Below are positions 10,625-55,379 of a stretch of DNA of 55,379 nucleotides, one piece after another; the stretch's first letter is position 1; every line of letters starts with the position of its first letter. The notes beneath the pieces are model-generated. The model had not been told where the DNA came from. It saw only the letters and a program-made list of their open reading frames with translations, and did no database searches. Location: positions 1 to 55,379 of the forward strand of contig JAUCBJ010005274.1 of the NCBI GenBank assembly GCA_032718475.1, given 5' to 3'. The position numbers were made by a program, and so were the translations under genes. The stretch is from Nemertoderma westbladi. Lineage: Eukaryota; Animalia; Xenacoelomorpha.

Positions 10625-11814
10625 TGTTCGCGCTTTCAGACCTTTAGTAGTTTAACATGCCAAATTTAGATGTCTTCTAGATTATAAATCGACTTTAGCC
10701 TATGACGAGTATTTGATACACTACAATAGCCGAAGCCAGTCTATGCGCGACCATTCACCCGCTGGATATACCCGGGAGACTGGATTCGGAAGCTTTGACC
10801 TTATTGCGGTGTAGGCCTACTGTATTATTCGACTGATCGTTAATATATAATTTCTGACAAATATTATTCACTTTAGGGAAATATTAACAGTTCCTTTAGG
10901 ACATGGCGCTCTAAATATGTAAACAGAGTTATGACTTACACTAGACACAACGGGATGGCTATGGATTCACGTATAAAGTGCATTCTTTAGGAGATGCTTT
11001 GTTATCTGTCACAATCATGCACACTACCGCACAATGCTGCACACCAATCTGCCGACCTTCACTAATTTTAGTCACATATAAAGAGAACAACAACCGACAC
11101 ATGTAGTGCCTATGAAATAGCATTAGATTCACTCCAAAACCACTTTAATGTAAGTCGCAATTGTTATATGTAACCGGTCTCTTACCTTCAGTATATCAAG
11201 AAGATTGGGGTTTATGATTATTTATCGATATTATCCAAATATAATAATATTCCATCAACTGATATAATTAATAACCGACAGTAAATAGCAGTAAAAATGC
11301 GGTGTTTGTAGTTGACAATATGATTTGCATTGATAGGATTAGACTGTTAGTTTGATTTGATAACAGTTATACGTTTCTATGACCAAAGCCTACTAATGTT
11401 TGGCTAAAGTCTGAAACTTCCACAGAAGTACAGAAGAATCCTAAGCCGGTGTTCTGGGCTTAGAAAGATACACACACTGACTGAATTGCATGAGTTTCTG
11501 TATACAATCTCTAACATAGAGTCAAAACCACTCTGATTGGTCGACCGAACAAAGAACGAACAAAGAACAAAGAAAAAGTTACACGTGGACACAGCTGATA
11601 GATGTCGTCATTTGAGTTCCGATGTTTAGAGCATTTGGCTTATTGCGACATAAAATCGCTAGTTATGTCCGCTAAAGTACACATACAGAAGAAATGGCTT
11701 TTTATGTCCACTAAAACACCGGTACAGTAAGGAAACGGCTTTTTATGTCCGTTAAAACAACTACAGAGTACTTTGCGGGGAAAATAACCAGCTAATTCCG
11801 CAAAAGCCTTTACA
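10625..11814 (-). repeat. 3' LTR of A1 (~1190 bp)
   Basis: TGT...ACA termini; homologous to 31614-32720 and 54480-end; PPT GGGAGCGG abuts it on the minus strand (11815-11822). Confidence 0.85.
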
Positions 11815-11892
11815 CCGCTCCCAGAAAATGGGATTTAATTCTATAAAATATATAAAATCACAGTTTCTAAAATATAAAAATACTCTAAACAG

Positions 11893-14800
11893 TTAGTCTT
11901 TCTTACGCGGACGGCGTTTACGCAGTTTTTTGAGGCTAGCAAGAGTCCTTTTCTCTTTGGGGCGAGCCACTTTACTAGGAGGGCTATAACTCCTGGGTAA
12001 AGGGTGCAATACAATTGTATCAGAAGGTTTAGGATTACAATCGGTGTATCCGCCGGTCGAGGTACCTGGTTGATCGATATCAACTTCAGTGGAGCGAGGT
12101 CTAACGGCCTTTAGGGCGCGTCTTAGGACAGCAGCTCCTACTGGTCCCTGACGAGTCGTCTGGACAATAGCGGTAGGTGGACCGTGAGTGGTGAGAAACT
12201 TCCTCGGTTTAATGGTTCTTTCCAGCTCGCGTTCTCTGGCTCGATATTCGTAGGGCCGTCGAGATACTTCCTGCAACTCAGGGTGCGAGTTGATAAATAA
12301 ATCGCCATACTCAGGGTCTTGACAGATGAAATTGATCAAATGGTATGAATTAATATCGTTAGGATTGACGTTCCTGAGATATTTTCGAACAAATTTGGTG
12401 GAAATACACTCACCAACACGCTTCATTAGTTCGTAACTCGGTGTGCGTGTTTTTTGTTCAACAGATGCGAATAGATAAGGATGGAATGCGTAAACTCCCT
12501 CGTAGGCGCGTCCAGGGTAATAGCGATGGCGTGACTCACAATGCAAATCCGCGTTCGCTTCCCAAGCTCGGATGTAGCGCAGGGTAATCATCTCATCTAC
12601 GCTTTCCAAATCGCGGTTAAAAGGGCAATTAAAACTGGCATGTCCTTTAAGTTGACAGTGGTTGCATTGAGTCATAAATTGGGGGCAAACTGCAAAAATG
12701 TGCGAGTTATTGAGTCTGCAATACGCACAATAGATCTCCATCATCGGTTGTTCGTGGAAATAGGAGCAGGGTACGTCTGAGTCCATAGGGGTGAAATGAT
12801 CTCTCGATGCGCATAATCGGCATCGTTTTCGAGAAACATAGTTGGCGTGCCGATAATCGTATGCGGTGAGACATTGTGGACCTTGATACCATTCCAAGAC
12901 GTAGTCGTTATCGCTGCTCCGGGGCGCTGTAGGCTGAATCTCCTCAGATTCTAAGCATATTGGTTCGTCTTCCAATTGCATAGCTGAGATAGGTGCGGCT
13001 GTCTCCGCAAGCGAACCCACTGTCTGAACTTCCACGACAGAATAACCCGTGGGTATTCAAGGTCTTTGTATAACAGATGAATGTAAGTTCTGTATACAAA
13101 CGTCCTTGAAAAGGGCGAATCCCGCGCTGTCTAACTTCTCTGCAGCTGAGTCTCTTAGGCTGAGTTTGGTCAGAGCGCGGTCCTTGAACTGACTATCAAC
13201 GTTACGGAACGGAGTCAGAAAGCGCCTGAAACATTCGAAGCGGATGAATTTATTGTGCTCATCTAGCTTGGATGGGCGCGTATGGTACGACTGCACACAT
13301 CGGCTAGCCAACCGGCAAGTGCGGCGTTTTCAAAGATCGTGTATATAGCTAAGGAGGGACGAAGTGGAACACTCATAAAGCTATACACGGCGCCAGGTGC
13401 GGTCAATGGTCCGTCAAAGTATAATCGAAAATAATGATCTCCATATACTTGTTGGTAGTTGATAGGATTTCCAACCTTGAAATTCCATCCGTATTCTTGA
13501 AAGGCAAGATGTCCGATGGAGGTTCGTTGTACTTTAGTAATGCCGCTTGGTGTATTTGCATACATAGTGCGGAAGAAACCTCGGCCTTCTGCCCAGGGAG
13601 CAATCAGCTGAGTATCGACGAAAGGGTATGGAATGTTCTCCATGTTCCGAAAGTCGTTTTGGAGATCTCCATAAACAGCTGAGCCGATTTTAAGGATTCT
13701 TTCGTTAAACAACATCTCGAGCACGGGCTGGGGTAACATCGATCCATCGATACCCATGGCCGGTTTGCGCTCGGTGTCGGTGACGTAACGCTGCGCGAGT
13801 TCGAATTGTCCATGTCGGAGTTTCTTTTGTATCTCGGTAAGGGTCTCAAAAGAATAATCAATCACATCGGAACACGCTCGAGTAAATACGTGGGTAGAAC
13901 CAGCTAGTCCTCGTATGTGTATCATTCGCGTAGTTCCCAGTTCTCCAACCGGAACGCTACCTTCGTTATCGTAAGTGACAACTCCATACATCTCGATAAC
14001 GTTAAGAGTCTCATTCCACTCTTTAGTGGCGTTTTCTAGAGTCATTCCCACCGGATGCCACAAGGTAGCGCATTCGCTAGCATTAGGTAGATCTCTATAC
14101 TTTAAATATTGTATAGTATATGTCTCTACATCTCCATATCTTTGTATTCTTTCATCCTCGAATAACACGTCGAGATTCCAGTGTACTAATCGAGTTTTGA
14201 TGAATCCATCAAGATTATACGGAGGTATTGTCTCTTTCTCTATCCTGGAAACATTATAGGGTTTTCGAAATGAGTTTACTTTAACTAACTGATCAAGATG
14301 TTTCTGCAGTTGTTCGAGTTCGACAAGATCGAGAGGATTTATTAGTGGTAGAAACCTCAGACTATGTGTAGGATCTTCCGGTTTTACCATGTAATATTGC
14401 GTTAGATTGACGTAATAAGGGTGATCTTTGATCCCATAAAACGAGTTCGGTAAAGGTCTAGCGCGTATGTTAACATCGTGTACCATACGACGGACAAGAT
14501 CCGCTCTATTGTCCGGAGGTTCAACGAGTATACCATCGACACGAGCGGCCTCGATTGGCGGACGTTGCAACATGGGAGCGTCAGCGATAAGATCTCGAGA
14601 TCTTAGGTTGATATCAACTGGTTGAGGCTGTGCCGTGGCGAAGAGTTTGTCTCCGAAATGGGGAACCATCGAAGGATGGATGATGGTTTTAGAATAGAGA
14701 TCCGTCATAAGAATTTGAGCTTCTGGCTGGGCTAAAGCTGCTTCTTCTCTCTCATCCATTTCTATGTGTTTCTCCTCGAGCTGATTTTCCTCCGCTTGTT

Positions 14801-16121
14801 GTTGTAAACGCTCGTCTAGGAACTCTTGTAAAGAGTAGGTTCGTCCACGTTCGATGTCTTCTTTGAGATTCTGGATTTCTCTATTGAACTGGGGTAAAGC
14901 TAATTCTTTCACCGCTTGAACTTGTTGCTGCAATTTGCGTTTCTCTAAACAATCGTAAGTTCCTTTTCCGATCTTCTGCCGAATAGCGTCTAACGCGTTT
15001 CGGACAACACTCTCTTCGACTTCGGTAACGGGTTGTATCGGGGTTAAGCCTGGACGGTTGTACGGGTTAAACGGCGATATTAGATGACCGCGTCCTAATC
15101 CGGCTAGGTAGGGTTGGCGAATATCTAGTGAGCCCACTACCGGAGTACCACCGATCAACTGTTCGGGTAACACAAGATCTTTAAATAGTGAGTACAGTTC
15201 AGGGGGATCCGTTATACTATTAGGATCAAACGTTTGAGGTCTCTCTGAGGAATGAGGAGTTCTGACCGAGTATTCCGGAACTCTGATCATTGGTTTATTC
15301 AAGGATCGTTTGAGTCGAGCGAGAGTAGGTGATACGTCGAACAGGTTTCGCTCGAAACTCCCATAAGTATATCATGTAAAACTGTGTTTAGCGCAATGTC
15401 TCCGCGGATGTTTATGTCTTTCCGTTTGCTGATTGGGCCTAGGGCATTCGTCACAGTAATACCAAAGACGCACGTCCTGCAGGGGAAACGCGGGTGATCG
15501 TTCTCCAGTTTTACAATATTCCTCCATCTGTTCGAAGCTATCTGGGATGACAGGTAGCGGTCAATCGGCGGTAAGATACATCATAGTGAAATAGAGTCGT
15601 TTGAGTTCTATCATAGGGTCATGATGTATACCTTGAGGATATCGAGTTTCTAGATTTTGTTGACTGGCAATATTGAGATATGTTTCTCTCAGGAATTCCA
15701 GATAATCGTTGAAGTCGCTGCGTTTATCCGGCTCTTCAATGTCTTCCCTTTCGAGTCTGTTTCGAATAGAATTCTTGTGTTCTATTCTCGGTTTATCGTT
15801 CCGACTCCGCTGGGTATGATATTTAAATAAAACCATTTCCCTTTCGGTGTCTACATCGTCCGTATCGTGTAAATCGATAGGATGGCCAGTAGTTAAGAAG
15901 TCCATATACGTACCATTACGATGCGTATAGCGAGTGGTGAATTTTCTATAATTCAATTCACGCGTAAGTTGCTCCTGGGACATTGGCGGTTCGATATAAC
16001 GACCATCGTCCTCTGTAGTAGTTGGACCAGCGTCGCCGCGTATCAAGCTATCAACAAACGCTTGTAAAGGTAGAGTATATCGCTCCCTGATACCAAGATC
16101 ATCTTCTATCAACTCAGTCAT
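11893..16121 (-). pseudogene. Accessory (env-position) gene of family A, ~1400 codons: DEDDy/WRN-like 3'-5' exonuclease plus tandem CCHC zinc knuckles and basic tail
   Basis: ORFs 15561..16121 and 13263..15302 are in one frame, separated by TGA at 15561 and 15372 (CGA and CGT in copy A2). ORFs 13057..13311 and 11893..13035 share a second frame, so one frameshift lies near 13320. Motifs VVTYDNEG, LPQPVLEMLFNERILKIGSAVYGDL, FVDTQ, PLRPSLAIYTIFE; knuckles CAYC-x5-H-x4-C and CNHC-x4-H-x4-C. Confidence 0.7.
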
Positions 16122-17755
16122 ATCTGCTATATGAGTTTATCAATATTATAATGAGTTTATATTTAGGCTAGCGGGCGTTGCTGCCTACCCCTCTCTGCCC
16201 CCGGACAGTGCAAGATCCTCAGCGCCGATGTACCGTCGTCGCTGTGTTTTCGCCAACGTAGTAGCTACACAACGACAACGATAACCGGCACAAGTCACTC
16301 CACTGTCCGTCCCAAAGGCTTAGATTTACTTCAGGTTCTTGCTGCAGAGTTAGGGCTACTTTCACAATTGCGACTCGCTACTGTAAACACACTTTAGTAG
16401 TAACATTCACCTATAAACGCACAAATTCCACACAACTGTCACAAATTGTACACATTCGGGCCATTTGTCCGTTAGTCAGGGCCTTCCAGAATGCCACGTT
16501 ATTATTATGTATACTTGGATACTAGCCGTGTGCTATTTATTCCCTATGCTATTCAATGGGGCAAGCTTTCTATTGTTCTTTTAACTCACTTCTAATTCTA
16601 GCGTGGTTGTTGCTATGGTGACATTATGGAAAGCTAGCGGTAGAATTAGGGTAATTCTCATGCATACAGATCTGGGATGCTATTTAATAGTAATTCTTTA
16701 ATTGTCAATATCCTCTTTATACATGATTTTATAAATTTTATCGGCTATTGACCATATGTTGGAGATTTTCGCACACTAATACACTTGATAGGGTGAATCT
16801 CCGCTCCCATGATCTATTATTTAATGGAATTTTGGGAATGTTATAAATTGTATAAAAATGACAACTTATCAAATTCATTAAAATATGAATTTAAATTTAT
16901 TCCCGTAAATTTTATTATTTAATATTAAATAGACACAATTTTATTCCAGAACATGTCTGGGGACTGGGATCCTTGATTCTAGGAAATTGGTCTTTTTAAG
17001 AATATCGGTAAGTACTACGATATCTTAATAGACTAGAATTTTAAAGGATCTAAAATTTGACAGATTTTGTAAATATTAATAATTAATATTTAGGATGGGC
17101 ACCAGTTTATTCCAGAACTTGTCTGGGGACATTAACCACTGATTCTAGAAATTTGTCTTTCAAGTATATCGGTGGGTGCCGCGATATCTTAGTCGACTAG
17201 AATTGCAGATGGTCAAAGGGTTTAACAGATTTATTTTGCGTTGTACGCTACTGTTAAAGGGACATCACGCTACTATATGTATTATTTAATATACGGTATG
17301 AGAGCAATATCGCAAGAAGCAATGTCAGTGAGAAGAGGCAAGTCGTTTCCAAGGTCTACCCAGAGCTTGGTTTAGCCGAGACACGAGGATCTGAATTTTG
17401 CATTCCTAATACTCTACTTTACCAATAATACTTGAACATAGTAGGAGCTTTATTGTACTTTAATAAGTACGGACATTTCATCTTACTGTAGTCACATATT
17501 TATAATGTACTACGGACAGTAAGGAAAGAGAAAAAAGAATTATTTCTCGCCGTCGCATTAAATATATAATATATAAGTAATTAATAAACACTAATATATA
17601 TTGCACTAATCTACTAAATAATCGCTAAAATAACATTCTACTAAATAAAATTAAAGAAAACGATTATAATAAAATTACATAATAATACATACATAAATAT
17701 AAAACAATAAAAACAAATATAAAATAATATAGTCACACACCCACTCCAGACGCTG

Positions 17756-19074
17756 TTACGTTGGGGAGTCCCTAGATGTTTGTTGGATTAGGGAGGTGGT
17801 CGTGGGAAGAGTATCTTGCCTTCCATAGTTTCCGGACAGTTCTCGGTCTCTTTCCAGTAAACATAAACGACCAACTGGGAGATTGAGTTGTTGTGTTTCG
17901 AATACAATTCCAGGTTTCCTCTTCGTCCTGGAATAGTGACGATAGAAACATCGCTTCAAATACACGACGGCCTTACAAAGCCGATTCCAGGATCTATAGT
18001 GGTCCATCGCTCCCGGTAGGAGAGGTGAGAGTCCCGGCGAGACGTCTGGTGTTCCAGATCTCCAGTCTCTCTCTCTGATCTCCACAACAGATCGGTTCGC
18101 GGTGGGGGAGTTTAGATCCACAGTGTCGTCCCTGGCAATGTGTAGTACAGACAGATCTATCACGGGTTTAAATAACCTTGATTTACTCGTCCGGGTTTTA
18201 GGTTTGACTTTCTCCGCTCCCTTGGCTTGTCTAATCTCAGCCGTGGTACGATGGGGAGGCCATTCATCTTCTTTACTTAGGAAGTCGGGTCCACCTAACC
18301 AGTCTGGAGTATCTGTCAGTTCTTGAGGAGTTGCTCCTCTGGAAGCGATGTCGACTAGATTAATCGTCTCGGGGCAATGTCTCCATTGATCTACATTGGA
18401 GTTAATATCGTCATTATCTGAGGAGTATGGTGTTCCCTCAGTTGGGTCGTCCACTCACTGCTCTCCGCTTCCCATTCACTTACTTGGTAGACCCCTTCTT
18501 TGGGTAACCTTTCCATGAGAGTTCTACGGGAAGGGCCAGTAAAGTACCAACCTACTCTAGTTCTTCCCGCATAGGCTTGTAGTGGTTGCGGTTGAGCAGG
18601 CCGTTTCTCCAATGTCTCAAGCGCTTCATGCGCATTTTGGCCGATGAGTATTTGCACTCCAGGGTAGTCTGTGTTGAATCTAGGTATCTTAAGCTGCTGG
18701 GTGAAATCGTCCTCATCCCAGTTATAAGGTTCTACTTGGCTGGTAGCGAAGTTCTTTATCGCCACCATTTTTACTGACCTTATACTGTGTTCTCCTAGTT
18801 CATCCTGGGGGGTGGACAACGCACCTACATAATAATCTGCTATTACTGTAGATTTCCAAACCTGCATAATTCCTGACATGTTTAACTTAGTTCGGAACTT
18901 GGGTTGTCCAGCAAAGATGTCTTCGGCTAGTTCTTTGTCGATGAATGTTCCTGTGCTACCGGAGTCAAGGAGGGCGTTCACTATATAACTCCTTTCAGGT
19001 CCGTGGACCCTCAACTGCACTACGGGAAATTCTCGGATTCCTACATTGGAAGTTGGTGCTTTCCAAGATGGTTG
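17756..19074 (-). pseudogene. pol: A1 pol remnant (aspartic protease, RNase H-adjacent segment, integrase tail)
   Basis: ALLDSGSTGTFI protease motif; WRHCP..NLVDIASRG Pao motif; internal deletions relative to A2. Confidence 0.85.
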
Positions 19075-20632
19075 TCAGTCAGAAGTAGTTGGGGGGAGCT
19101 CACTGTCGGTGTCCTTTTCATACGTAAGTGCTCGATATACTGCGGTATTTATCAGGTAACAGGATTCGTTTTTGTCGGAGAATTCGTCCGTATAGAATCC
19201 TTCCATCTCAGAACTTTGGTCAGTGTCGTTCACATCACTGAATTGGACATGTAGTTCGGACTCACTTACCTGACTCGGGCTGTTTCGTTCGAATTCAGTG
19301 TGCAACAAGATATGATGTTTTGCGCCGCACTTCGCACACCTTGCATCGGAGTAACAGGTTCGCCGTTGGTGTCCTTGTCTGAGGCAATTATAACACAACC
19401 GCTTATCCCACATGACTTCCCATCTATCCTTTAATGATTTCTTTAGGAATTCATCACACACATTCAAACGGTGGGGCCCGTCACACAGCGCACATTTCGG
19501 TTTGATGTTACTTACCTTATTTTGAGTAACGTTGTGCACACTCGTTCTTTCCTCGGGCTTTCTTCCATGAGTTCTCTTAGGAGACGTAGGAGGAGTTTTT
19601 CTTACCTGTTCTCTCCTGTCATTGGTTCGAGACTTGAATTTACTTACGTCCTTAGTCGCTTTGTTGTCATAGTAAGATCTTTCAGTGTCTTTCCCGCTGT
19701 CTTCCTCTTGAGAAGCCTGGCTTTCGCCGTCGTCTGTATAACACACTGGTATTACCTTTCTCCTAGAAACGGGTTTCTCACTTACCTTATTTTCCGGTGT
19801 TTTCTCTCTGGACTGTTTTACGAGCTGTAATTTTACCTCTCCATCTGAGAATGACATGAGATCAGCCATGGTAGGGTCTCTTCGTTGTTGTTCCATCATA
19901 TATAACACTTTCTTGTACCAGCATGTACCTACTCCACCCTTAGGTAAAGTAGAGGCCACGGCTCCAATAACCATAGAACTCTGATATTCATGAGACTTAC
20001 CTAGCCAATCTAATTGTCTACAGATCTCCTGAATCTCATCGGAAAACTCTATAATCCCGCTGCTAATGAACTTTCGGGGCGCTACCAATTTTGCATACAA
20101 ATACCTAGCTATGTTATTCCTAGTACCATACCTGATGTTTAGTGTATCCCAAACTTGTCTTAACCCATCTGGATGTCCAATAAACTTTAACGCCATTAAC
20201 TTGGGAGATCTTTCCAAGCACTCGATGAGGAATCTCAGTTTCTCTCCGTTAGATAGCACAGAGTTCTGTATGTTATCTTTGTAATATTCATTAAAAGGTA
20301 ACCATTTCATCTCATCTCCATTAAACTTGACGATCTCTCCCACCTTTACTGCTTGACGGGCTTCGGTTCTAGCCATTTGACGCGTAAAACTTTCTTGGGC
20401 CATCGTATTATTTAATATCGAGTTATCGGTATATAAATTTCTCGGATTATGATCAGGTCTATATGGAATATCATTGTCAACAGGTTTATAATTACCCTTA
20501 ATAGGGTTTACTATAGGAGTTTCTACTTCACTAGCAGTATAGATGCGTGTAGGCTCCACACCTTGCGCATGAAATACTTCAGACCTAACAGGTTGACACA
20601 TTGTTACCGGGGTTGGTGGTATACCCTTTTGT
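19075..20632 (-). CDS. gag: A1 Gag (5'-truncated): BEL/Pao capsid-like domain plus three Cys/His knuckles
   Basis: KFNGDEMKWLPF..EKLRFLIECL; CALCDGPHRLNVC, CYNCLRQGHQRRTC, CAKCGAKHHILLH, the triple-knuckle pattern of BEL/Pao. Confidence 0.85.
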
Positions 20633-21600
20633 GTATTTACTCAAACCGATTTTCATATTTTTTTCAACATTTTACTTCAATTGGTCCCAGAAATACAGAT
20701 AAAATTTCAAATACCTAAACACCTATATATCCAATCAAAAAAATGAAATATTATACCCGGGTAACAGATACACAGAGCTGTGAGAGCGCATTGATGTCGA
20801 TGTGAGATCGCGGGCATAACCCCGACAACTGAGAGCAATACCTGTACTTTATATTGGATGTAGATAAGATGTCACAACAAAGAATGAATACTCCGTACAA
20901 CTGGTAAACATTTCAGCACATAGCATAGCTAGTTCATCAATTTCGACGAGATTTTATCCAGATTCACTAAAGAAGACGAAAATAATTCACATTTTTAAAC
21001 CCGCGGATACCAATGGACAAATATACACCATATACCCGTAATATAGTGTCATTTTCTGATGACACGGACCCCCCCCCCCCAAATTTGTCTACAAATCTTT
21101 ATCATATTGCTTGAAATTTGAAACACAACTAGTTCAACTCACCGTAGTTGTTACCATGAAGCCAAAATTTTCGATTTCGCCTTTAAATTTTTTTTATAAG
21201 CGTTTTAAAAAAGTGTCTTTTGCGATTTCGCATCCTTCATATCATTGCCATTCTTCACTTTAGTCGTAATTTTTTCATATCAATAGAAGCTTGCGTTGAA
21301 AGGATTCCAAATATGTAACAATATATGAATTTCATTGAGAAACAGCTGAGATAAAGGCGTTCAAATATTGTAAGAATTATAGTTCGCTGCAGGCCATTTA
21401 TTCTAGTTTATAAATACACAAATTTTTTTTTATTTTTTCAAAATTATTTATTTTATGAGTTGTTAGGCAACAGTGGAATGCCTATACAATATCTGTATTG
21501 CATAGTTAATCATACATAAACAAATTGTTCCGGAATATTGTGTGTTTATTAAATAGAATAAATGGCCTGCAGCGAACAATAATTCTTTCAATCTTCGAAA
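20633..21600. mobile_element. Probable non-autonomous DNA-transposon (MITE-like) segment
   Basis: Non-coding; begins exactly where A1 gag is truncated; contains an internal inverted repeat (21365-21425 vs 21535-21595, also 9350-9410 vs 9515-9578); termini not identified. Confidence 0.4.
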
Positions 21601-21649
21601 GATTAAATCAGTCCAAATATAAACAAAACACAATAATCTAAAATAATTC

Positions 21650-23336
21650 CTAAAATGTCCTCCCGGCGATCTTAGAGTTCATCCTGCTGGTCTCTAGTCC
21701 ATAACTCTGAGCGCTAATGCTAATGGTAGGCTCACAAGCCTTCCTTTCTCCACAATCTCGCTCCTCAATGCCAATGGTAGGCTCGCAAGCCTTCCTTCCT
21801 CCACAACCTCGCTCCTTAACGTTTTGTCGAGCGAGCTCAACCTCGCCCTTTAATATGATTGGGGGGTGGTTGAGGTCGAACTGGGCTCAGGCTCCAGTGT
21901 CGAATTGTCTGTGGTTCCAAAACGCTGGGAATCGGAATGACTGGCGTCTCACGCACATCCGTCGGGCGCTTAATCCATGAAATCCTCATCCGATCCCAAT
22001 CTTTCGCTTAGTCGGATCAGATGGAGTATCTGCGACGCTTGGAGGGAGTTTGAGGGGCAGAACTAAGCCATCCGCAGACACCTCCTTCTCAGACGTTGTC
22101 GTAACCCTCATGGGTTCGGGCAAAGGGAATCCTGTCCCTCCGTGCGGTTCTCTAGGAGGGGAAATGGTGCCTCGGGTCATCCGGATATGCGATTTGGAAG
22201 TCATCCTCTCGGTGATATTTACTGTCTTCTTGATCTCTTGGCTGGCCTTTTGGGCTTTAAGTATGCGGTATTGTGCGTCTTCCTGGGGGTGGCGTATTCT
22301 CTCTGGCAATGGTTTCGCCTTAAAACCAGTTTCACGTAGAATGTCTGCTTCGTCTAGTATACACGAGGTCACGCGTTTGTGATAGAACGCGCTCCGGTAT
22401 GCCCAAGCAATAGAATGCCAGGCTCCCCGATTTCGCTGTTCGACTCACAACTTGTTGAACTCTCCGGGGTTATCTGGTTCACCACAGTTTGAAAGTTCCA
22501 AGTATTCTTGTTATCTGGGTGAACTTGGAGGAAATAATTGCGTACGACTTTAAATCCGCTATCTAGTGGCAATATGTCGAGTACCTCCAATAATTTGTCG
22601 TACTGAGGCATCGCTGATACTTTGACATTATTATAGGGTTAGCGGCCCAGAATCCTAGATGCACTCTCATAGGGAAACGTCATCGCTGCGTCGATATATG
22701 CTCGTCCACTAAGTCCTCCCAATGGTCAAATAGCTGCCACATTATCTTCACCGACATATGCTCGTAGGGGACGTCTCGGAGTTGACATTCCGACGTTCAT
22801 TCGATGTTATAGTAGGTGCATTGAACCACAAAGCTCCAACAGGTGTAGAAAGTGTGGGACTGCTGATCCCCACACCAGTTGCACACTAAATCTGGTAGAG
22901 AGATATGCTTTGCTCCACATTTCTTGGCATGATGCCCTGTAGTCCCACATCTGCCCTAAATGGTGTTGGCAGGGTACCAAAAGCATTCGTAGATGGGATC
23001 TCCTATAATCTACTACTGTTCTTGTGATAGTCTTCATCATCGGGGTCAGTCGGTACGTTCGTCTCCGTAGGTTATACACAAACCATGGCATCACAAACCA
23101 ATTGTACACAAACCATGATCTTGGTTTGCATCTTCCTCGGAAGGTTCTCCTCTATCTCAATAACTTGCCACAACGGCTCGTCAATTATCATGGACTCGGT
23201 CGGATCTTCATCAGGATGATGAACGGTAGGTGTGCGCGCCTTCCATGATCCTTCCAGGTCCTTAATCTCCGCGTGGCGTTCCCCATCATAGGGTACTAAC
23301 GTTAACATCGACGGTCTGTCGACTAGACTTCCCGCG
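21650..23336 (-). pseudogene. Family B fragment: diverged homologue of the family A accessory gene C-terminal (zinc-knuckle) region
   Basis: Manual translation CNWCGDQQSHTFYTCWSFVVQC...HWEDLVDEHISTQR*RFPMRVHLGFWAANP...PQY...KVVRNYFLQVHPDNKNTW aligns with CAYCRLNNSHIFAVCPQFMTQC...AWEANADLHCESRHRYYPGRAYEGVYAFHP...PSY...KFVRKYLRNVNPNDINSY. Confidence 0.7.
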
Positions 23337-28443: not shown

Positions 28444-28515
28444 GATGTGATATATACAAGCGATAATAATAATATGCCATAAAAAATAACAAATCAGACT
28501 ATATATACACTATGC

Positions 28516-29694: not shown

Positions 29695-29780
29695 AATCTG
29701 AAGATATTGGTCAGGCAGTCAGGTATTAATCAGGCAGTCTGTAAGCATTAGGTCTACTGCAGTACCCTAGCAATCAATCA

Positions 29781-31613: not shown

Positions 31614-32720
31614 TGTTCGCGCTTTTAAGACTTTTGGCAGTTTAACCCGCCAAATCTATATGTCTTCTAGGTTATAAATCGACTCTAGCCTATGACAAGT
31701 ATTTGATACAAATAAATCCAACATTAGCCGAAGCCAGTCTATGCGCGACCATTCACCCGCTGGATATACCCGGGAGACTGGATTCGGATGCTTTAATTTG
31801 ATTGCGGTGCAGGCCTACCGTACTATTCGATTGATCGTTAATATATAATCTCTGACAAATATTATTCACTTTCGGGAAATATTAGCAGTTCCTTTAGGAC
31901 GTGGCGCTCTATCCATATAAACAGAGTTATGACTTACACTATACACAACGGGATGGCTTATAGATCACAAAAGGTGCATTCTTTAGGAAATGCTTTGTTA
32001 CTCGGTCAAGCACATACAGACTATTGCACACCACCGCACACTGAATTGCCGATATTCACTGCTTTTAATCATGTATAAAGAGAACAGCAACCGACATTTG
32101 TAGGGCCTATTAAGTAGCATTGAATTCACTACAAACCACGATAATGTATGTCGCAATTGCTATATGTAACCGGTCTCTCTAACCTTAGTGTATCAAGAAG
32201 ATTGGGGTTTCTGATCGTTTATCAATATTCTCCAAATAACAATATGCAAACGAATGATACATTTAATAACAAACCGTAAATAGCAGTAAATAATGCGGTG
32301 AAAAGCAGTTTGAGTTTACAGCACGTAGTATGCAGTACCGTGCCAGACCAGGTAGGTAGTGTGCCAAGTTAACCAAGATAACAGTTTTGTGATCTTATAA
32401 TTAAAGACGTTCTAATGTTGGAAAATTCAGAAACATTCCACAGCCGATGATGTTCTAAGCTGGGAAAAACGTCATTACTGAATCATGTGATTCGTGGTAT
32501 GCATTTTACACACAAAGAGGTAATCTATCACTGTGATTGGTCAACCGTTGTTCTGATTGGTTGATCGAACGGAACAAAGAGGCTACACAAGTACAGCAAA
32601 TCAGCCAACCAGCGGGCGGATTGTGCCACTAGAAGATACAGTTTAGAGGATTTGAGCGAATGGGGGAAAACTGGATTACGAATGGAAAAAGGCCAGTTAT
32701 ATCCCCCAAAAGCTTTTACA
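31614..32720 (-). repeat. 3' LTR of A2 (1107 bp)
   Basis: TGT..ACA termini; PPT GGGAGCGG at 32721-32728; CCAAT boxes on the minus strand near 32535 and 32556. Confidence 0.9.
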
Positions 32721-32798: not shown

Positions 32799-34319
32799 TT
32801 AGTCTTTCTTGCGCGGACGGCGTTTACGCAGTTTCTTGAGGCTAGCAAGAGTCCTTTTCTCTTTGGTGCGAGCCACTTTACTAGGAGGGCTACAACTCCT
32901 GGGTGAAGGGTGCAATACAATTGCATCAGAAGGTTTAAGGTTACGGTCGGTGTCTCGTCCATTTCGATATGCTTCTCCTCGAGCTGATTTTCCTCCGCTT
33001 GTCGTTGGATACGTTCGTCCAAAATTCTCGCAGAGAATAGGGTTGTCTAAGTTCGATATCTTCTTAGAGATTCTGGATTTCCCAATCGAACTGAGATAAA
33101 GCCAATTCATTTATCGCTTGGACTTGCTGTTACAACTTACGTTTATCTGAACAAACGCAGGTTTCCTTTCTGATCTTTGTAGAATAGCGTTTAACTCGTT
33201 TCGTACAACGCTCTCCTCCACCTTGATGAAGGGTTGTATCGCGTTAAACTGGGACGACTATACGGTTGAATGGCGATATTAGGTATCCGCGTCCCAATAC
33301 GGCTAGGTAAGATGGGCGGCTAGCTAGAGCTCACTGCCGGAGTGTTACCGATTAATTGTTAGGGTAACACTAGATCTTTGAACAGTGAATACAGCTCGTG
33401 AGGATCCGTGATACTATCAGAATCGAAAGTCTGATGTCTAACTAAGGAATGAGGAGGTCTGACCGAGGATTCCGGAACTCTGATCGTAGGTTTACTCAAG
33501 GATCGTCTGAGTCGAGAGAGCGTAGGTGATACATCGAATAAGTTTCGCTCAAAACTCCAGTAAATATAACGAGTACAACTGTGTTTAGCATAACATCTCC
33601 GCGGATGTTTGTCTTTCCGTTTGCGGATTGGGTCTAGGGCATTCATCGCAGTAATACCAAAGACGCACGTCCTGCATGGGAAACGCGAGTGATCGTTCGC
33701 CGGTTTTACAATATTCTTCCATCGGTTCGAAGCTATCCGGTACAACAGGTAGCGGTCGATCGGCGGTAAGATACATCATAGTGAAATAGAGTCGTTTGAG
33801 TTCTATCATACAGTCATGATGTATACCTTGAAGATATCGAGTTTCTTTCTAGATTCTGTTGACTGGCTATATTGAGATATGTTTCGCTCAAAATTCCAGA
33901 TACTCGTTGAAGTTGCTGCGCTTATCCGGATCTTCAACGTCCTCTCTTTCGAGTCGGTTCCGAATAGAATTCTCGTGTTCTATTCTCGGTTTATCGTTAC
34001 GACTACGCTGGGCATGGTATTTAAATAAAACCATTTCCCTTTCGGTGTCTACGTCGTCCGTATCGTGTAAATCGATAGAATGGCCAGTGGTTAAGAAGTC
34101 CATATACGTACCATTACGATGCGTGTAGCGAGCGGTGAATTTTCTACAGTCCAACCCACACGCAAGTTGCTCCCGGGACATTGGCGGTTAGATATAACGA
34201 CCATCGTCCTCCGTAGTAGTTGGACCAGCGTCGCCGCGTATCAAGCTATCAACAAACGCTTGTAAAGGTAGAGTATATCGCTCCCTGATACCGAGATCAT
34301 CTTCTATCAACTCAATCAT
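32799..34319 (-). pseudogene. A2 accessory gene, with a ~2.7-kb deletion removing the exonuclease and zinc knuckles
   Basis: Homologous to 16121-14750 and 12048-11893, fused at ~32952. Confidence 0.85.
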
Positions 34320-36011: not shown

Positions 36012-39000
36012 CTAAGCTGGGGAGTCCCTAGATGTTTGTTGGATTAGGGAGGTGGTTGTGGGAAGAGTATCTTGTCTTCCATAGTTTCCGGAGAGTTCTC
36101 TGTCTCTTTCCAGTAAACATAAGCGACCAACTGGGCGATTGAGCTGCTGTGTCTCGAAGACAATTCCCGGTTTCTTGAAGTTGCGTCGCATGACGACGAG
36201 TAGTTCTACCGATCGCACCAAACCGTCATCCGAGATGTGAGTCTCGATGATACGACCTGTCTGCCACCGCTTATGTGGAAGATCTACATCCACAATAAGA
36301 ACCATGTCTCCAGCGCTGACGTTTTCTTGCTGCGCAAACCACTTAGTTCAAAGTTGTAGCGTGGGCAGATAATGTTTTTCGAAATGGTCAGCGAAACGAC
36401 GGGATAACAACTGCATGAGTTGCCAAGTTTGCCGGCAGTATTCGTCTCCGTCTGTGATTTCCGATTGTGGGAGCATGGCTACAGGTTTCTTCAGTAGGAA
36501 GTGCGCGGGTGTTAGCGCTTCCAGGGAATCGGGACTCGATGAGACTGGCATAAGCGGTCTCTCGTTGAGATAGGCGGCGATTTCCTCCATTAACGTCCGC
36601 AAAAGTTCGTCGGTGAGATACGCGCGGCAAGGCACTATAAAGTGAAATGCTGTCTTCACACTTCTTATTAATCTCTCCCAACTTCCTCCCCACCAAGGGG
36701 CGTCGGCGGCGTTGAAGGTCCAGCTAGACGCTGTTACTCGTAGCTGATCGTCCACCTGTCTTTGGTTCCAATCTTTGACGTAAGCTTTGATTTCATTGTT
36801 GGCACCAATGAAGTTTGTTCCCTTATCAGATCTCATCGTGTTACTAGTGCCAAAGCGAGCGATCTGTCGTCGTAAGCTTAATAGAAAGCTGTTGGTAGAT
36901 AAATCGTTCACCATATCGAGATGGATAGCTCTACAAGTCATACAAACAAAGATGACACACCATCTCTTGACTATAGTCCTAGCACGATATACTTCAATAG
37001 GGCCAAATAAATCTACACCGGTATTAGTAAAGGGTGGTTCATAGAAGCTTACTCGTTCCCTAGGTAATTCTGCCTCTCTCTGTGTTAAAGGCCTACTGAA
37101 TGCTTTCCTACAGGGTATGCAGTTCCTAAGAACTTGGTTCAGAGCTCTACGGGGTTTATAAAAATAATAGCGAGTTCGAATTTCGCTAAGAACTCGTTCT
37201 CTACCAGCATGATAAAGTTTGCTGTGAACATCTACAATCATCTTGACTTGTATCTCAAGATTTCTAATGAGTATGGGAAACTTAGTGTCAAAGGATAATG
37301 GAGCATTCGTTAATCTTCCTCCAACACGTATCAACCCATCTATCATTGTGCTAGAGAAATGATCCCTTAAGCGCATCTGTGGATTTCTCAACAACAGAAA
37401 ATACTTATCGGAATCCTCATAGCATTGCAGGAGTCTCAGCATCTGCTTGTTGGTTTCTTCATGCTCCTGATAACTGATCTTCTCCTTCAGAAACCTGTCG
37501 GATATCTTATATTTGGGAAGATCTTTAATAACATGGACCTGCACCGATGTTATTGGAGTGGTATCACTTTTGGTCTTCATCCCGGAGTAGTGATGGTGAA
37601 AACATCTTTTTAAATATGTAACGGCCTTACAGAGCCGATTCCAGGAACTGTAGTGATGTATCGCTCTCTGCAGGAGAGGTGAGAGTCCTTGCGAGACGTC
37701 TGGTATTCCAGATTTCCAATCCTTCTCACGGATTTCCACAACAAGTTTATTTGTGGCTGTGGGTTTCTGATCCAAAGCGTCGTCTCCGGAAGTATGTAGT
37801 ACAGACAGATCTACCATGGGTTTGAATAACTTCGATTTACACGCCCAAGTTTTAGGTTTGACTTTCTCTGCTCCCTTGGCCTGTCTAATCTCTGTGGTAG
37901 TAAGATGAGGAGGCCATTCTTCTTCTTCTTTGTAGAGGAAGTCGGGTCCACCTAACCAGTCTGGAGTATCTACCAGTTCTTGTGGAGTTGCTCCCCTGGA
38001 GGCGATGTCTGCTGGATTAATCGTTCCGGGGCAATGTCTCCATTGATCCATCGTCGTGCGACTAAGTATAATGGCTACTCTGTTGGTAACGAAGACGCTG
38101 AACTGACAGACTTCATTGGTTATATACTCCAACACGAGTAAAACGTCGGTCCAATAGACAGTTTTCTCCAGTGGATAGTCGATCTGTTCTGTTACATTCC
38201 GGCCGATGGCTGTAGCGGTATAGAGCCGCTTTTAACTCCGCTCGAGGAACTTTCAACTTATTGTTTATCAATGCCTTAGAGGTAACCAAGGCGACTTTGA
38301 TTCCGTCCGGAGTTTCCACCCTTAGGTAGGCTACTATACCTATTCCCATATCGCTGGCGTCTCCAAACACATGGAGTTGATAGGAATACGTAGGGAGAAC
38401 ATGACCAAAATATGAACGGGAAATTATAAAGTTCTCGATGGCTGGTAGAGAATCTTCCCATTTCAACCACTTCTTTAATAATTCTCCCTTAAGTGGATCG
38501 TCCCATGAGTGGTTTTCAAGCCACATTTGTTGTACTAAACTCTGAGCAATCAATATAACTGGGCTAATAATTCCCAATGGATCGAAATAAGTGCTCAGGA
38601 TACTTAAACAAATCCGTTTAGTCCGAACTGGATTATCTCGCTGTTTTAGTTGGAAAAACAGGATATCTCTTTCTGTGTCCCATTTCAAACCAAGGGTCTT
38701 AGTTTCTGGAAGATCATCTTTTAGTAGATCTAGGTCTTTCGCTCCTCGATCTTCTACCGGGATCGACTCCAGAAACTCATGGGAGTTGCTGGTGAATTTA
38801 GTTAATCGAAATCCACCTCTTTTTAAGCACTCTACCGTTCCTTTAGCGGCGTCAATGGCTTCTTCGACTGATGGAAGGGACTTTAGATTATCGTCCATGT
38901 ATATATCCCGCTTGATGTTGTCAATCACCTCTTTAGAGAAGGCTTCTCGGTTGTCATCTGCAGTTGTGCGCACCACTGAACAGGCGTTTGAAGGGCTTGA

Positions 39001-40494
39001 GATTATCCCAAAAGCCTGGATGGTCATCCAGTACTCCACCGGTTTCTGGTTGAGGTCTCCTTCAGGCCACCACAGAAATCGTAGGCTATCTCGATCCCTA
39101 TCCAGCGCCTTGACTTGTAAGAACATGCCTTCTATATCTGAGGTGAAAGCAATTGAATATTGTCTTAATCTTAAGAGTATTCCCAACAAGGATTGGAGTA
39201 AGTTGGGTCCGGGTAACAATTCGGAATTAAGGGATTGGCCCATATAGAGGGCGGAGCCGTCAAACACCACTCGTACCTCATGGGGTTTACCGGGTTTGGG
39301 AATGTAATGGTGAGTTAAATAATACGTTCTCTCAGTTATAGGTGTTTCTTCCGGTACTAGCTCCGCATATCCCTTGCTAATAAATTTCTTCAACTGCGTT
39401 TGATACATTTCTTTAGCTGAAGAATTTGCCGTAAGGCGTCAATGTAGTTGAGCAATTCTTTTCTCCGCCAAGGGTCTGTTGTTTACGAACTTTGGTTCTC
39501 GCTTTCGGAAAGGTAGACCGATCTCATATCTACCTTGATCTTTAAGAAAACGTGTAGTTGTCTCTTGGATCTGCTTGGCTCTTTCTTCCTCTACCGATAG
39601 GGCCTTATCGTAGGAATTGGGCTCTACAGCCTCTTGAGTAAAGAATTGTACGGCGTGTTCATCCCGAGTCTTGGCATTATAACGTTCAATGACGTCATTA
39701 AGTTCGTCGTTATAGTCGTCTCGTTCTGATGGAAGAAGGAGCTGACATAAGTGCACTTGGTTTTGCCAAGTCTCGTTTTCCTTAAGGAGATCTATGGTAT
39801 TCTCCTCATCAAAAAGTTGGTGGACATCGTCATTATCTGAGGAGTATGGTGTTCCCTCAGTTGGATCGTCTAACTCACTGCTCTCGACTTCCCATTCTCT
39901 TACCTGATATACCTGGTCTTTCGGTAATCTTTCCATGAGAGTTCTACGGGAAGGGCCAGTAAAGTACCAACCCACTCTAGTTCTTCCCGCATAAGCTTGT
40001 AGTGGTTGCGGTTGAGCAGGCCGTTTCTCCAATGTCTCGAGCGCTTCATGCGCGTTTTGACCGATGAGTATTTGCACTCCAGGGTAATCGGTGTTGAATC
40101 TAGGTATTTCAAGCTGCTGGGTGAAATCGTCCTCATCCCAATTATAAGGTTCCACTTGGGTGGTAGCGAAGTTCTTTATCGCCACCATTTTTACTGACCT
40201 TATACTATGTTTTCCTAGTTCATCCTGGGGGGTGGACAACGCGCCTACATAATAATCCGCTATTACGGTAGATTTCCAAACCTGCATAATTCCTGACATG
40301 TTTAGCTTAGTTCGGAACTTGGGTTGTCCAGCAAAGATGTCTTCGGCTAGTTCTTTGTCGATGAATGTTCCTGTGCTACCGGAGTCAAGGAGGGCGTTCA
40401 CTATATAACTCCTTTTAGGTCCGTGGACCCTTAACTGTACTACAGGAAATTCTCGGATTCCTACATTGGAAGTTGGCACTTTCCAAGATGGTTG
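36012..40494 (-). pseudogene. pol: A2 pol: protease, RT, RNase H, integrase (stops at 39439 and 36348, frameshift at ~38200)
   Basis: ALLDSGS; YLTHH..VRVVFDGS, SDIEGMFLQ, YMDD; VFGDAS; H..H..CIPC, GVDLFGP, SDKGTNF, WWGGSWERL. Confidence 0.92.
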
Positions 40495-43400
40495 TCAATC
40501 AGAAGTAGTTAGGGGGAGCTCACTGTCGGTTTCCTTCTCATACGTAAGTGCTCGATACACTGCGGTATTTATTAAGTAACAGGATTCGTTTTCGTCTGAG
40601 AATTCGTCCGTATAGAATCCTTCCATTTCAGAACTTTGGTCGGAGAATTCGTCCGTATAGAATCCTTCCATCTCAGAACTTTGGTCAGTGTCGTTCACAT
40701 CACTGAATTGGACATGTAGTTCGGACTCACTTGCCTGACTCGGGCTGTTTCTTTCGAATTCGGTGTGCAACAAAATATGATGTTTCGCGCCGCACTTCGC
40801 ACACCTTGCGTCGGAGTAACAGGTTCGCCGTTGGTGTCCTCGTCTGAGACAATTATAACACAACCGCTTATCCCACATGACTTCACGTCTATCCTTTAAT
40901 GATTTCTTTAGGAATTCATTACACACATTTAAACGGTGGGGCCCGTCGCACAACACACATTTGGGCTTGATGTTACTTACTTTAACATGTGCTGTGTGGT
41001 GCACGCTCGTTCTTTCCTCGGGATTTCTTACATGAATTCTCTTAGGAGACGTAGGAGGAGTTTTTCTTACCTGTTCTCTCCTGTCATTGGTTCGAGACTT
41101 GAATTTACTTACGTCCTTTAGGGTTTTATTGTCATAGTAAGATCTTTCAGTATCTTTCCCGCTGTCTTCTTCTTGAGAAGCCTGGCTTTCGCCCTCGTCG
41201 GTATAACACACTGGTATTATTTTTCTCCTAGAAACGGGTTTTTCACTCACCTTGTTCTCCAGGGTCTTCTCTCAGGACTGCTTTAGGAGCTGTAATTTTA
41301 CCTCTCCATCCAAGAATGACATGAGATCAGCCATGGTAGGGTCTCGTCGTTGTTGTTCCATCATATATAACACTTTCTTGTCCCAGCGTGTACCTACTCC
41401 ACCCTTGGGCAAAGTAGATGCTAAGGCTCCTACAACCATAGAATTATGGTATTCATGAGACTTACCTAACCAATCTAGTTGTCTACAGATCTCTTGAATC
41501 TCGTCGGAAAACTCTATAATCCCGCTGCTAAGAAACTTTCGGGGCGCCATTAATTTCGCATACAAATACCTAGCTATGTTATTCCTATTACCATACCTGA
41601 TGTTTAATGTATCCCAAACTTGTCTTAATCCATCTGGATGTCCAATAAACTTTAACGCCATTAACTTGGGAGATCCTTCCAAGCACTCGATGAGGAATCT
41701 AAGCTTTTCTCCGTTAGATAACACGGAGTTCTGTATGTTATCTTTGTAATATTCATTAAAAGGTAACCATTTCATCTCATCTCCATTGAATTTGACGATC
41801 TCTCCCATCTTTACCGCTTGACGGGCTTCGGTTCTAGCCATTTGACGCGTAAAACTTTCTTGGGCCATCGTATTATTTAATATCGAGTTATCAGTATATA
41901 AATTTCTCGGATTATTATCAAGTCTATATGGAATATCACTGTCAACAGGTTTATAATTACCCTTAATAGGGTTTACTATAGGAGTTTCTACTTCACTAGC
42001 AGTATAGATGCGTATAGGCTCCACACCTTGCGCATGAAATACTTCAGACCTAACAGGTTGACACATTGTTACAGAGGGTGGTGGTATACCCTTTTGTAAA
42101 TTTACTAACTTATCGCGTTCTGACGCGATACTCTGCTGCACTTCTTGCAACGCTAACCTACCCTCTCTTACTGCTCCCTTTAACTGCTGAACAGTCCCTT
42201 CCAACTCCCGGACCTGCCGGGAGGAACATTTACAATGTTCCCTCAGCTGCCCGACCAGGAGACCCATCTCCCGTCGTCCCTCAGCTACCCACTCGACCGC
42301 CGAAGCGGGAGTCGCCAACGTAGTAGCGGGCAAGCGAGAGACGACGGGCGATAAATTCTTGATATCTCGCTCGGCGTCCAGGATGGGTTCGGACTCGGGA
42401 ACAGTCCTACTGGGCACAGGTAGTTTCGTGCTGTGTAAAGGGAATTTAGAGGTAGGTTCTGGGAGTACAGGTGTCTCTATCACCAAAAGGGTGGCTTCAA
42501 AGAACAGGCCTAATTATTTCAGGCTCATCTACTATAGTAGGGAGTCTTTCTACTGTAATAATTTGGTCTGTGGGTTCTGTACTACCTAAGTCTGTGCTAG
42601 CTAGTTGCCTTCTCCCAGCTGGGAGCAGATTAGGCAATTTCTGACGGTGAGGCATTCTTCTACGTCTGTTGGAACGAGATCTATTTCCTCCGCCTTCAGG
42701 ATCAGTGGTATCGCCTTCATCAGATGACGTAACACTTGCGTCCTTCTTCTGAGGTTTCTCTGCCGTCGCTTCGCTTTCCACTTGAGAAAAGACAGCGTCT
42801 GTTGATTCTCCTTGGGTCATGTGCTCGGTTAGCAGAGCTTTCCATTGAGTCGTTTCTTGGACTTTAAGACTCACTCGCCAGAACCAAGTCTTTACGGCGA
42901 CCCACAACGACGTATCTTGGCTTATCCTTGAGACTTTCTTATAGGCTGAAAGAATTAGTCTGATCCACAGAACTCGTTCGCGAACTTGATAAAGCAGCTC
43001 TTCCTGCTCCCGAGGTCCGTGAGGCAGCTGAAACAGCTGCTCCGCCAATCGCCCCAGAGAGCTGAAGAATCTCTGTACATATCCTGCTGCCGACCCCTTC
43101 CACCTAGCCGAATCCCTAGTGTACCATACCACTCCCATCCTGTATAAGTCCTCCCAGCCAGCTTCCGATAAGTTAAACGGGAGTCCGGGTCCGGGGAAAT
43201 TCCATTGCGTCTCGACAATAGACTTCAGTTCCTCCTTCGTGTATCCCGCATAACTGACCTTGGTCGATCGCTTACTTCTCGCCCAATCGATTTGGTGTTC
43301 CTCCACCGCAATCAATACCCTTTTGAGTACGGCTACAGAATGGATGAGAAGGGGATCCGAATAAACCGCATCTGCCATCTTTGCTCCACGCTCGGGTGTC

Positions 43401-43522
43401 AGCTCTACAGTATCCGCACTACTGGAGCTGTCGGGCCGCTGAGAAATGAGTTCTCGGCTCGAGTGTTGCTGCTGTTCCGCTGCTTCTTGGTCCCGCTTGA
43501 CCTGAGCTCGAGTGCCTATGAT
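40495..43522 (-). pseudogene. gag: A2 gag, main part (frameshift at ~42490, stop at 41272)
   Basis: Homologous to A1 gag; triple knuckle; stop at 41272 is AGA in A1; in-frame 45-nt duplication DQSSEMEGFYTDEFS x2. Confidence 0.85.
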
Positions 43523-54205: not shown

Positions 54206-54479
54206 GATCTGAGCAGGCTTACACGTCTTCTGCTCAATATTAGCCTGCAGATAAATAAAACTGACAGAAATAAGTAAACCATGCAAAGGAATAAGGGGTG
54301 ATCAATCCCTAATCCCCTAACAGCCTACAATATACAATATATCACAATCGAAATAATACTGCTGTACCTGTACTGCTGTAGGTACCGGTCCGGGTGGTTA
54401 GGTAGTCAGGCCTACTAGGTACGGGTTGTCCGGTACTTCAGCGTTATTGCCTACTGCAATCTAGAATTAAAACTGTTAT

Positions 54480-55379
54480 TGTTCGCGCTTTTAAGACTTT
54501 TGGCAGTTTAACCCGCCAAATCTATATGTCTTCTAGGTTATAAATCGACTTTAGCCTATGACAAGTATTTGATACAAATAAATCCAACATTAGCCGAAGC
54601 CAGTCTATGCGCGACCATTCACCCGCTGGATATACCCGGGAGACTGGATTCGGATGCTTTAATTTGATTGCGGTGCAGGCCTACCGTACTATTCGATTGA
54701 TCGTTAATATATAATCTCTGACAAATATTATTCACTTTCGGGAAATATTAGCAGTTCCTTTAGGACGTGGCGCTCTATCCATATAAACAGAGTTATGACT
54801 TACACTATACACAACGGGATGGCTTATAGATCACAAAAGGTGCATTCTTTAGGAAATGCTTTGTTACTCGGTCAAGCACATACAGACTATTGCACACCAC
54901 TGCACACTGAATTGCCGATATTCACTGATTTTAATCATGTATAAAGAGAACAGCAACCGACATTTGTAGGGCCTATTAAGTAGCATTGAATTCACTACAA
55001 ACCACGATAATGTATGTCGCAATTGCTATATGTAACCGGTCTCTCTAACCTTAGTGTATCAAGAAGATTGGGGTTTCTGATCGTTTATCAATATTCTCCA
55101 AATAACAATATGCAAACGAATGATACATTTAATAACAAACCGTAAATAGCAGTAAATAATGCGGTGAAAAGCAGTTTGAGTTTACAGCATGTAGTATGCA
55201 GTACCGTGCCAGACCAGGTAGGTAGTGTGCCAAGTTAACCAAGATAACAGTTTTGTGATCTTATAATTAAAGACGTTATAATGTTGGAAAATTCAGAAAC
55301 ATTCCACAGCCGATGATGTTCTAAGCTGGGAAAAACGTCATTACTGAATCATGTGATTCGTGGTATGCATTTTACACAC
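54480..55379 (-). repeat. 5' LTR of A2 (partial)
   Basis: Near-identical to 31614-32513. Confidence 0.95.

Follow-up and report, generated by a model that had tools for sequence, protein, structure and literature searches.

In a giant BEL/Pao-type long terminal repeat (LTR) retrotransposon of the xenacoelomorph Nemertoderma westbladi, the env slot after pol is occupied by a third open reading frame, ORF3, which very probably is a selected gene joining a DEDDy-fold nuclease to zinc knuckles. The element was found in a 55,379-nt stretch of contig JAUCBJ010005274.1 (here called the window), which is animal DNA crowded with mobile elements. Self-comparison of the window revealed two copies of the element, A1 and A2, both on the minus strand. 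The ORF3 protein is predicted to be a DEDDy-like 3'-to-5' exoribonuclease with knuckles that would act in trans. The reading favored here, with a probability of about 0.4, is that this exoribonuclease is tethered to the RNA of the element and trims 3' ends, possibly that of the primer. The parts of ORF3 in copy A1 are as follows.

11893..16121, minus strand: ORF3 of A1, about 1,409 codons, split into five pieces by three internal stops and a frame change
14121..16121, minus strand: N-terminal part of about 670 codons
13266..14120, minus strand: DEDDy-like 3'-5' exonuclease domain, unbroken in A1
12625..12822, minus strand: three Cys/His knuckles (one atypical, two CCHC), also aligned to the knuckles of a database homologue, P0001
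11899..11931, minus strand: basic tail KKLRKRRPRKK, kept in A2

ORF3 runs from an ATG at 16121 to a stop at 11895-11893 on the strand that is sense for gag and pol, and it ends 71 nt before the polypurine tract (11822-11815), with the LTR beginning at 11814. A preliminary description of the window, made from its letters, had placed such a gene of about 1,400 codons in the stretch from pol to the 3' LTR, ending some 70 nt before the polypurine tract and carrying the knuckles and the basic tail. Position, strand, size and both features agree with what was found; the four pieces it had counted became five. The clear CCHC knuckles lie at 12729-12685 and 12666-12625 and the atypical one at 12822-12766, with a match to Pfam zf-CCHC_3 (E 0.006) below the cut-off. 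The basic tail may serve as a nuclear localization signal or RNA binder. For the N-terminal 670 or so codons, Pfam and protein searches found no homologue; a Cys/His cluster (15455-15393) and a coiled-coil-like stretch (14933-14850) were noticed there by eye. No transmembrane segment was detected in any of the five pieces (highest 19-residue Kyte-Doolittle mean, 1.19), and ORF3 is therefore not env, as had been proposed. By hydropathy, with no dedicated signal-peptide predictor run, ORF3 has no env-like combination of signal peptide and anchor.

The breaks in ORF3 probably belong to this copy rather than to the gene. The internal stops lie at 15563-15561, 15374-15372 and 13059-13057, and the frame change near 13330-13265. 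In four public sequencing runs (X1, X3, X4 and X5, the last of them possibly of RNA), examined as contigs only, nearly all depth at all three stops disagrees with the window; these stops are therefore decay private to A1. At the frame change, the length differs from the window in one contig each of X4 and X5, and this break is probably private to A1 too. Copy A2 is open at the positions aligned to the two 5' stops, as the preliminary description had stated; lacking the nuclease and knuckles, A2 is silent on the nuclease part.

ORF3 is under purifying selection. Between A1 and A2 the ratio of nonsynonymous to synonymous substitution rates (dN/dS) is 0.20 over 442 N-terminal codons, far from the value near 1 that had been named in advance as refuting the gene; the ratios for gag and protease are 0.16 and 0.10. 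The tail, at 0.92, spans 51 codons, too few for this value to count. Variants in the public runs are also mostly silent, the sites listed being the best supported rather than a random sample. In the first set (40 listed of 243 sites, one break site dropped), 34/39 were silent overall: 19/23 in the nuclease region (p 1e-6 against the 0.325 expected for transitions) and 15/16 in the linker, against the same expectation. The excess in the linker confirms the second reading frame. A second set gave a weaker signal, with 12/21 silent in ORF3 (26 sites listed, two break sites and three duplicates dropped).

The nuclease domain carries a D-x-E at 13982-13959 (VVTYDNEG) and an Asp at 13691-13665 (KIGSAVYGD), which are taken to be ExoI and ExoII by the family consensus, with DTQ at 13622-13608. 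The ExoIII stretch PLRPSLAIYTIFE lies at 13367-13329 and holds Y-x3-E at 13343-13329. All three motifs, and the Glu in place of Asp, had been correctly located in the preliminary description. The active site is accordingly predicted as four acidic residues, D-E-D-E. A HMMER search of 1.84 billion representative proteins returned a single match, P0001 (E 1.2e-4), a 648-residue singleton on a 9,449-bp contig with an exonuclease and three knuckles, as in ORF3. Word-index protein searches gave nothing at E<=0.001, and a further one returned only P0001 itself. The nuclease of the window aligns to P0001 with a Smith-Waterman score of 147 (1,000 shuffles: mean 31.6, maximum 58) and the knuckles with a score of 73 (shuffle maximum 57). 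Since the two parts match separately, the layout is shared. At 28% identity, the two proteins align at all four acidic residues and at the Tyr of ExoIII (ExoI, YDNEG in the window and IDVER in P0001; ExoII, AVYGD and NIKAD), and ORF3 has an insertion of about 30 residues after ExoI that P0001 does without. Scans for related loci in viral contigs and metagenomes confirmed nothing, and phage records gave no match.

Structure searches with the model of P0001 point to the same fold. Foldseek placed EXD2 first (E 7.8e-5) among 18 chains at E<=0.001, and the chains listed are all DEDDy-type: EXD2, At5g06450/RICE1, Nibbler, Exd1 and RNase D. These are followed in the ranking by Egalitarian, Rrp6 and WRN. 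A VIA comparison with EXD2 gave Z 10.1 and a root-mean-square deviation of 5.8 over 123 aligned residues, and viral 3'-5' exonucleases headed the BFVD search. For the window domain, 24/30 Atlas matches fall in the PF01612 set of WRN-like exonucleases (score 0.92, 164 shared features); for P0001, 25/30 are with PF01612 clusters (score 0.94). PF01612 is carried by 38% and 34% of the matched cluster members, respectively. An RNase H-like DnaQ fold is thus predicted through P0001, and the Atlas result on the window agrees. ORF3 would resemble EXD2, WRN-exo, Nibbler (Mut-7), EXD1, RICE1 and RNase D in predicted fold and in the residues that alignment assigns to ExoI (D-x-E), ExoII (D) and ExoIII (Tyr); it differs from the EXD2/WRN/Nibbler group in its knuckle fusion and in identities under 25% in structural alignments.

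With EXD2 as the best fold match, a DNA nuclease may be considered, which would proofread or trim cDNA ends or remove single-stranded DNA left over from reverse transcription, activities within reach of WRN/EXD2-type domains. EXD2 reportedly has roles on both DNA and RNA, and a genome of about 18 kb could favor proofreading. DEDDy domains are known as well from Dada DNA transposons, where they have been proposed to process 3' ends (PMC3706591). The zinc knuckles, however, suggest RNA, and packaging into particles is uncertain because ORF3 is a separate gene after pol, unfused to reverse transcriptase or integrase. A DNA nuclease is therefore judged very unlikely.

Evidence for action in trans comes from copies of the element that are without the nuclease, such as A2; a diverged relative is listed with its remnant.

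32802..34319, minus strand: ORF3 remnant of A2, in which a 2.7-kb deletion removes the nuclease and knuckles
22250..23300, minus strand: relative, decayed and diverged, of the ORF3 half that bears the knuckles and basic tail (identity 24%, tblastn E 1.5e-5)

Copy A2 was probably copied recently in its defective state, since the nuclease and knuckles are absent yet its LTRs are identical at 895/900 bases. The A2 deletion joint is also present in run X3, and X1, X4 and X5 have another joint at which the nuclease is gone and the knuckles are kept. Splicing was considered for the 12973-15754 joint and rejected: there are no GT-AG ends on the sense strand and the joint is seen in DNA runs, which makes it a deletion. 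The nuclease is apparently not needed in cis, and action in trans fits because A2 was probably mobilized without it and nuclease-spanning deletions occur in three other runs. No nuclease was seen upstream of the relative at 22250-23300, which could represent a shorter kind of ORF3 from a different family. Its decay and 24% identity show that ORF3 belongs to an old family with varied members in this genome.

Trans action would also suit a counter-defense nuclease that trims or degrades precursors of PIWI-interacting RNAs (piRNAs) or small interfering RNAs, or slicer products, and thereby shields all copies of the family. Such a role fits the loss of the nuclease from mobilized copies and long-term purifying selection on a non-essential gene, and the fold neighbors include the small-RNA pathway proteins Nibbler, Exd1 and RICE1. 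In structure, however, Nibbler stands no nearer than do EXD2, RNase D and the proofreading domains of polymerases. A 2'-O-methyl group, which mature piRNAs usually carry, protects against 3' trimming. The CCHC knuckles, arranged in tandem, look like those of RNA-binding nucleocapsids (P0001 against the nucleocapsid of HIV, E 1e-4 in the PDB sequence search), which favors element RNA as the target. Counter-defense is accordingly possible but doubtful.

The Glu at the last catalytic position, shared by the window and P0001, bears on whether the fold is active at all. A weak or dead nuclease could serve as an RNA adaptor that exports or localizes unspliced element RNA, like Egalitarian/EXD1 or the CERV protein. 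Egalitarian appears among the Foldseek matches of P0001 as a structure bound to I-factor RNA, the relative at 23300-22250 has knuckles and tail without a visible nuclease, and the element contains long non-coding stretches. Export of genomic RNA requires CERV, whose mRNA is a spliced Cer1 transcript (PMC10309623). In RICE1, too, Glu replaces the last Asp, unlike the canonical motif, and the protein is an active RNase, though it has other changes and no metal requirement (PMC5451212). Against an adaptor stands the conservation of four acidic positions and the Tyr between two proteins that are 28% identical. Dead nuclease derivatives usually lose acidic residues. An adaptor role is thus rather unlikely.

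If ORF3 is instead a tethered exoribonuclease, the knuckles and basic tail would hold the protein on the element's own RNA, and expression would be through a message of its own or a spliced one. A self-primer is the most specific candidate as substrate; single-strand trimming could bring it back to an 11-nt duplex beside the LTR.

54469..54479, minus strand: 11 nt directly after the A2 5' LTR, candidate self-primer binding site
55244..55254, minus strand: 11-mer inside the LTR, complementary to 54479-54469 and repeated at 32388-32378

Directly after the 5' LTR of A2, the one 5' end visible, the TGG of a tRNA-type primer-binding site is absent. The 11 nt found there are the perfect reverse complement of the LTR 11-mer at offset 0, which was equalled in 61/20,000 Markov shuffles, and the diverged LTR of A1 keeps 9/11 of the complementary 11-mer (11368-11360). 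Self-primers have been recognized by an LTR complement of at least 10 bp to sequence 0-5 nt after the 5' LTR (PMC6317226), and the 11/11 match of A2 is of this kind. It is therefore a candidate, on sequence, for self-priming in a BEL/Pao element. Tf1 and Tj1 likewise have post-LTR sequence complementary to a segment of the LTR (PMC4600332; PMC6317226); they belong to another superfamily, and in the BEL/Pao element the pairing is not predicted at equilibrium. It is unlikely that ORF3 is a dedicated primer-maturation enzyme that trims the 3' end of the self-primer RNA to the 11-nt duplex; the trimmed end would then be that of a cleaved 5' piece or a deadenylated 3' end.

Several results weigh against a tethered exoribonuclease. 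Pfam found no exonuclease match for the ORF3 pieces among 20 window ORFs, and no exonuclease came out of the PDB when the window domain, P0001, a two-sequence profile or the tail was searched by sequence, for which reason the motifs alone are weak evidence. The NCBIfam match of the window domain to TIGR01388 RNase D (E 0.0038) lies far below the cut-off, and its 164 shared Atlas features fall short of the 170 typical of same-family matches. The canonical ExoIII Y-x3-D is not found: both the window and P0001 read Y-x3-E, and with Glu rather than Asp as last catalytic residue the domain is filed as DEDDy-like, not canonical. The single-sequence AlphaFold model of the window domain has a predicted local distance difference test score (pLDDT) of 31.7 and no Foldseek match, and the model of P0001 has 42.5, with the C-terminal half under 50; the ExoIII geometry is therefore uncertain. 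When the 815-nt region is folded at equilibrium, the 11-nt pairing does not appear (probability 0.00, with -9.5 kcal/mol for the duplex), Tf1 self-priming is said to depend on the RNase H of reverse transcriptase, and self-primer and nuclease may be unrelated.

The missing Pfam and PDB sequence matches and the uninformative window model could even mean that the ExoI-III look-alikes are coincidental and the fold another one. Atlas, NCBIfam and the P0001 structure searches nevertheless all give one superfamily, and the homology to P0001 goes far beyond shuffles, so that coincidence is highly improbable and already largely refuted. The WRN/Nibbler/EXD family named in the preliminary description is thus upheld by the P0001 fold, Atlas and a weak NCBIfam match, and finds no Pfam or PDB sequence match; of the checks it had suggested, Pfam, AlphaFold and Foldseek gave nothing for the window domain itself, whereas the P0001 model matched EXD2-type chains.

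The host element is BEL/Pao-type by its Pol and gag, as had been proposed along with its giant size.

17756..20640, minus strand: remnant of the A1 gag with DUF1759 and three knuckles, followed by protease and the end of pol; reverse transcriptase, RNase H and integrase largely deleted, 5' end missing
16122..17755, minus strand: non-coding spacer of 1.6 kb from pol stop to ORF3 ATG, common to A1 and A2
11815..11822, minus strand: polypurine tract of A1, 8 nt
10625..11814, minus strand: 3' LTR of A1, 1,190 bp, TG...CA
54480..55379, minus strand: 5' LTR of A2, extending past the window edge (predicted start about 55586)
36012..43522, minus strand: A2 gag-pol, broken, with DUF1759, protease, reverse transcriptase (YMDD), Peptidase_A17/RNase H and integrase
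31614..32720, minus strand: 3' LTR of A2, 1,107 bp

Pfam matched the Pol of A2 to Peptidase_A17 (E 1.8e-31) and Integrase_H2C2 (E 1.5e-7), with weak Asp_protease_2 and RVT_1 matches in the order protease, reverse transcriptase, RNase H, integrase. DUF1759 was found in both gags (E 3.4e-13 and 1.1e-9), each with three knuckles of which the last ends in the BEL-type H. Related-locus searches turned up none of the BEL, Pao, Tas, Suzu, Sinbad, Dan and Flow references among which the reverse transcriptase would be placed. The pol of A1 stops at 17758-17756. The spacer that follows may hold a promoter or splice acceptor; either could be provided by an AT-rich stretch with a terminal AG, 2 nt ahead of the ATG of ORF3. 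A 165-bp tandem duplication within the spacer is kept in both copies (A1, 16905-17232; A2, 35115-35442). No target-site duplication was seen in the window for A1 or A2. Without the nested LTR element and inverted-repeat element, A2 measures 15.4 kb, and adding the 2.7-kb deletion gives about 18.1 kb, a figure that is arithmetic on A2 and not an intact copy.

The profile of Belpaoviridae by the virus taxonomy committee ICTV (PMC8742986) provides a comparison. The LTRs of 1.1-1.2 kb are within its range of 0.2-1.2 kb; the three-knuckle gag, the order of pol domains and the polypurine tract are shared (PMC8742986; PMC3118150), the 8-nt purine-rich tract corresponding to one of about 10 nt. The differences are a length of about 18 kb, outside the range of 4.2-10 kb, a nuclease as third gene where only env is named in the profile, and the absence, at the one 5' end of A2, of the 18-nt tRNA-Arg/Gly primer-binding site.

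Other elements share the window. Nested in the gag of A2 is a 7.15-kb LTR element (43523-50674, plus strand) with LTRs of 550/551 bp (550 identities), a 5-bp target-site duplication and a polypurine tract; it has a gag-like ORF (44134-45612) without a Pfam match, tandem repeats (48000-49400) and no pol seen. In this nested element, too, the LTR is not followed by TGG, and 9 nt complementary to that LTR lie at 43882. A second, distant BEL-like element (23931-24934 and 29745-31302, plus strand) has a reverse transcriptase 35% identical to that of A2 and a gag-like part recognized by eye, and is apparently interrupted by a long interspersed nuclear element with an Exo_endo_phos domain (25356-29718, minus strand). 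Two copies, 94% identical, exist of a repeat of 1.26 kb that contains an inverted repeat (8902-10165 and 20916-22184), and a 1.4-kb fold-back element lies inside the A2 leader (50990-52399). A tRNA-like A-box/B-box stretch seen by eye adjoins the 3' LTR of A1 (10624-10545, minus strand) and is possibly the head of a short interspersed nuclear element; it was not called by ARAGORN or Rfam, and the idea that A1 targeted a tRNA gene was dropped. Pieces of a host otopetrin gene are found at 222-1223 (PF03189, E 3.7e-23) and 2750-3394, minus strand.

Novelty is claimed only for the host superfamily and the architecture, because DEDDy ORF3s have already been described in bdelloid LTR elements. The rotifer Juno and Vesta families are Ty3/Gypsy-like, whereas the host here is BEL/Pao-type. 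In bdelloids, Juno and Vesta as well as Athena/Terminon elements have DEDDy ORF3s that read DEED and are without a demonstrated role (Rodriguez et al., 2017, PMC5408684). Like the gene described here, the ORF3 of Juno and Vesta follows pol in the env slot, is of the DEDDy type and has no transmembrane segment. The differences are a DEDE motif (at the fourth position) against the reported DEED, the rotifer sequences being compared by description only, and a length here of about 1,400 codons, of which some 670 at the N terminus are unexplained, together with three knuckles and a basic tail. No rotifer ORF3 came up in the HMMER search or in the word-index search that returned P0001. The rotifer extra ORFs showed no significant departure from neutrality (PMC5408684), and such ORFs have been argued to pass between retroelements rather than to be freshly taken from the host (PMC5408684, section 3.4). 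A captured origin of ORF3, as first suggested for the window, is plausible. CERV of the Caenorhabditis elegans element Cer1 (PMC10309623) is another non-env accessory protein, with a basic motif resembling a nuclear localization signal and a Cys finger; Cer1 is a Gypsy element, the finger is C4-type and the word exonuclease is absent from the available text. It is also absent from a BEL/Pao survey (de la Chaux and Wagner, 2011, PMC3118150) and from PMC13524379, and the available parts of PMC6338049, PMC6431247 and PMC3601003 hold nothing on a BEL/Pao element with such a gene. The earlier claim of novelty therefore stands in part: no such BEL/Pao element was found in the literature (Repbase, Dfam, supplements and subscription journals lay outside this scope, and a catalogue entry is possible), and the kind of gene was known from bdelloids.

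To conclude, nuclease cargo in the env slot, known from rotifer elements, is extended by this element to a second LTR superfamily, and its length suggests that BEL/Pao elements reach nearly twice their catalogued size range. Its ORF3 represents a distinct and very divergent lineage, with one homologue in 1.84 billion representatives, under clear purifying selection. Should ORF3 indeed mature the primer, this would be a retroelement-encoded step without a described parallel. A compact, unbroken domain and a candidate self-primer substrate make the role of DEDDy domains in retroelements a directly testable question.

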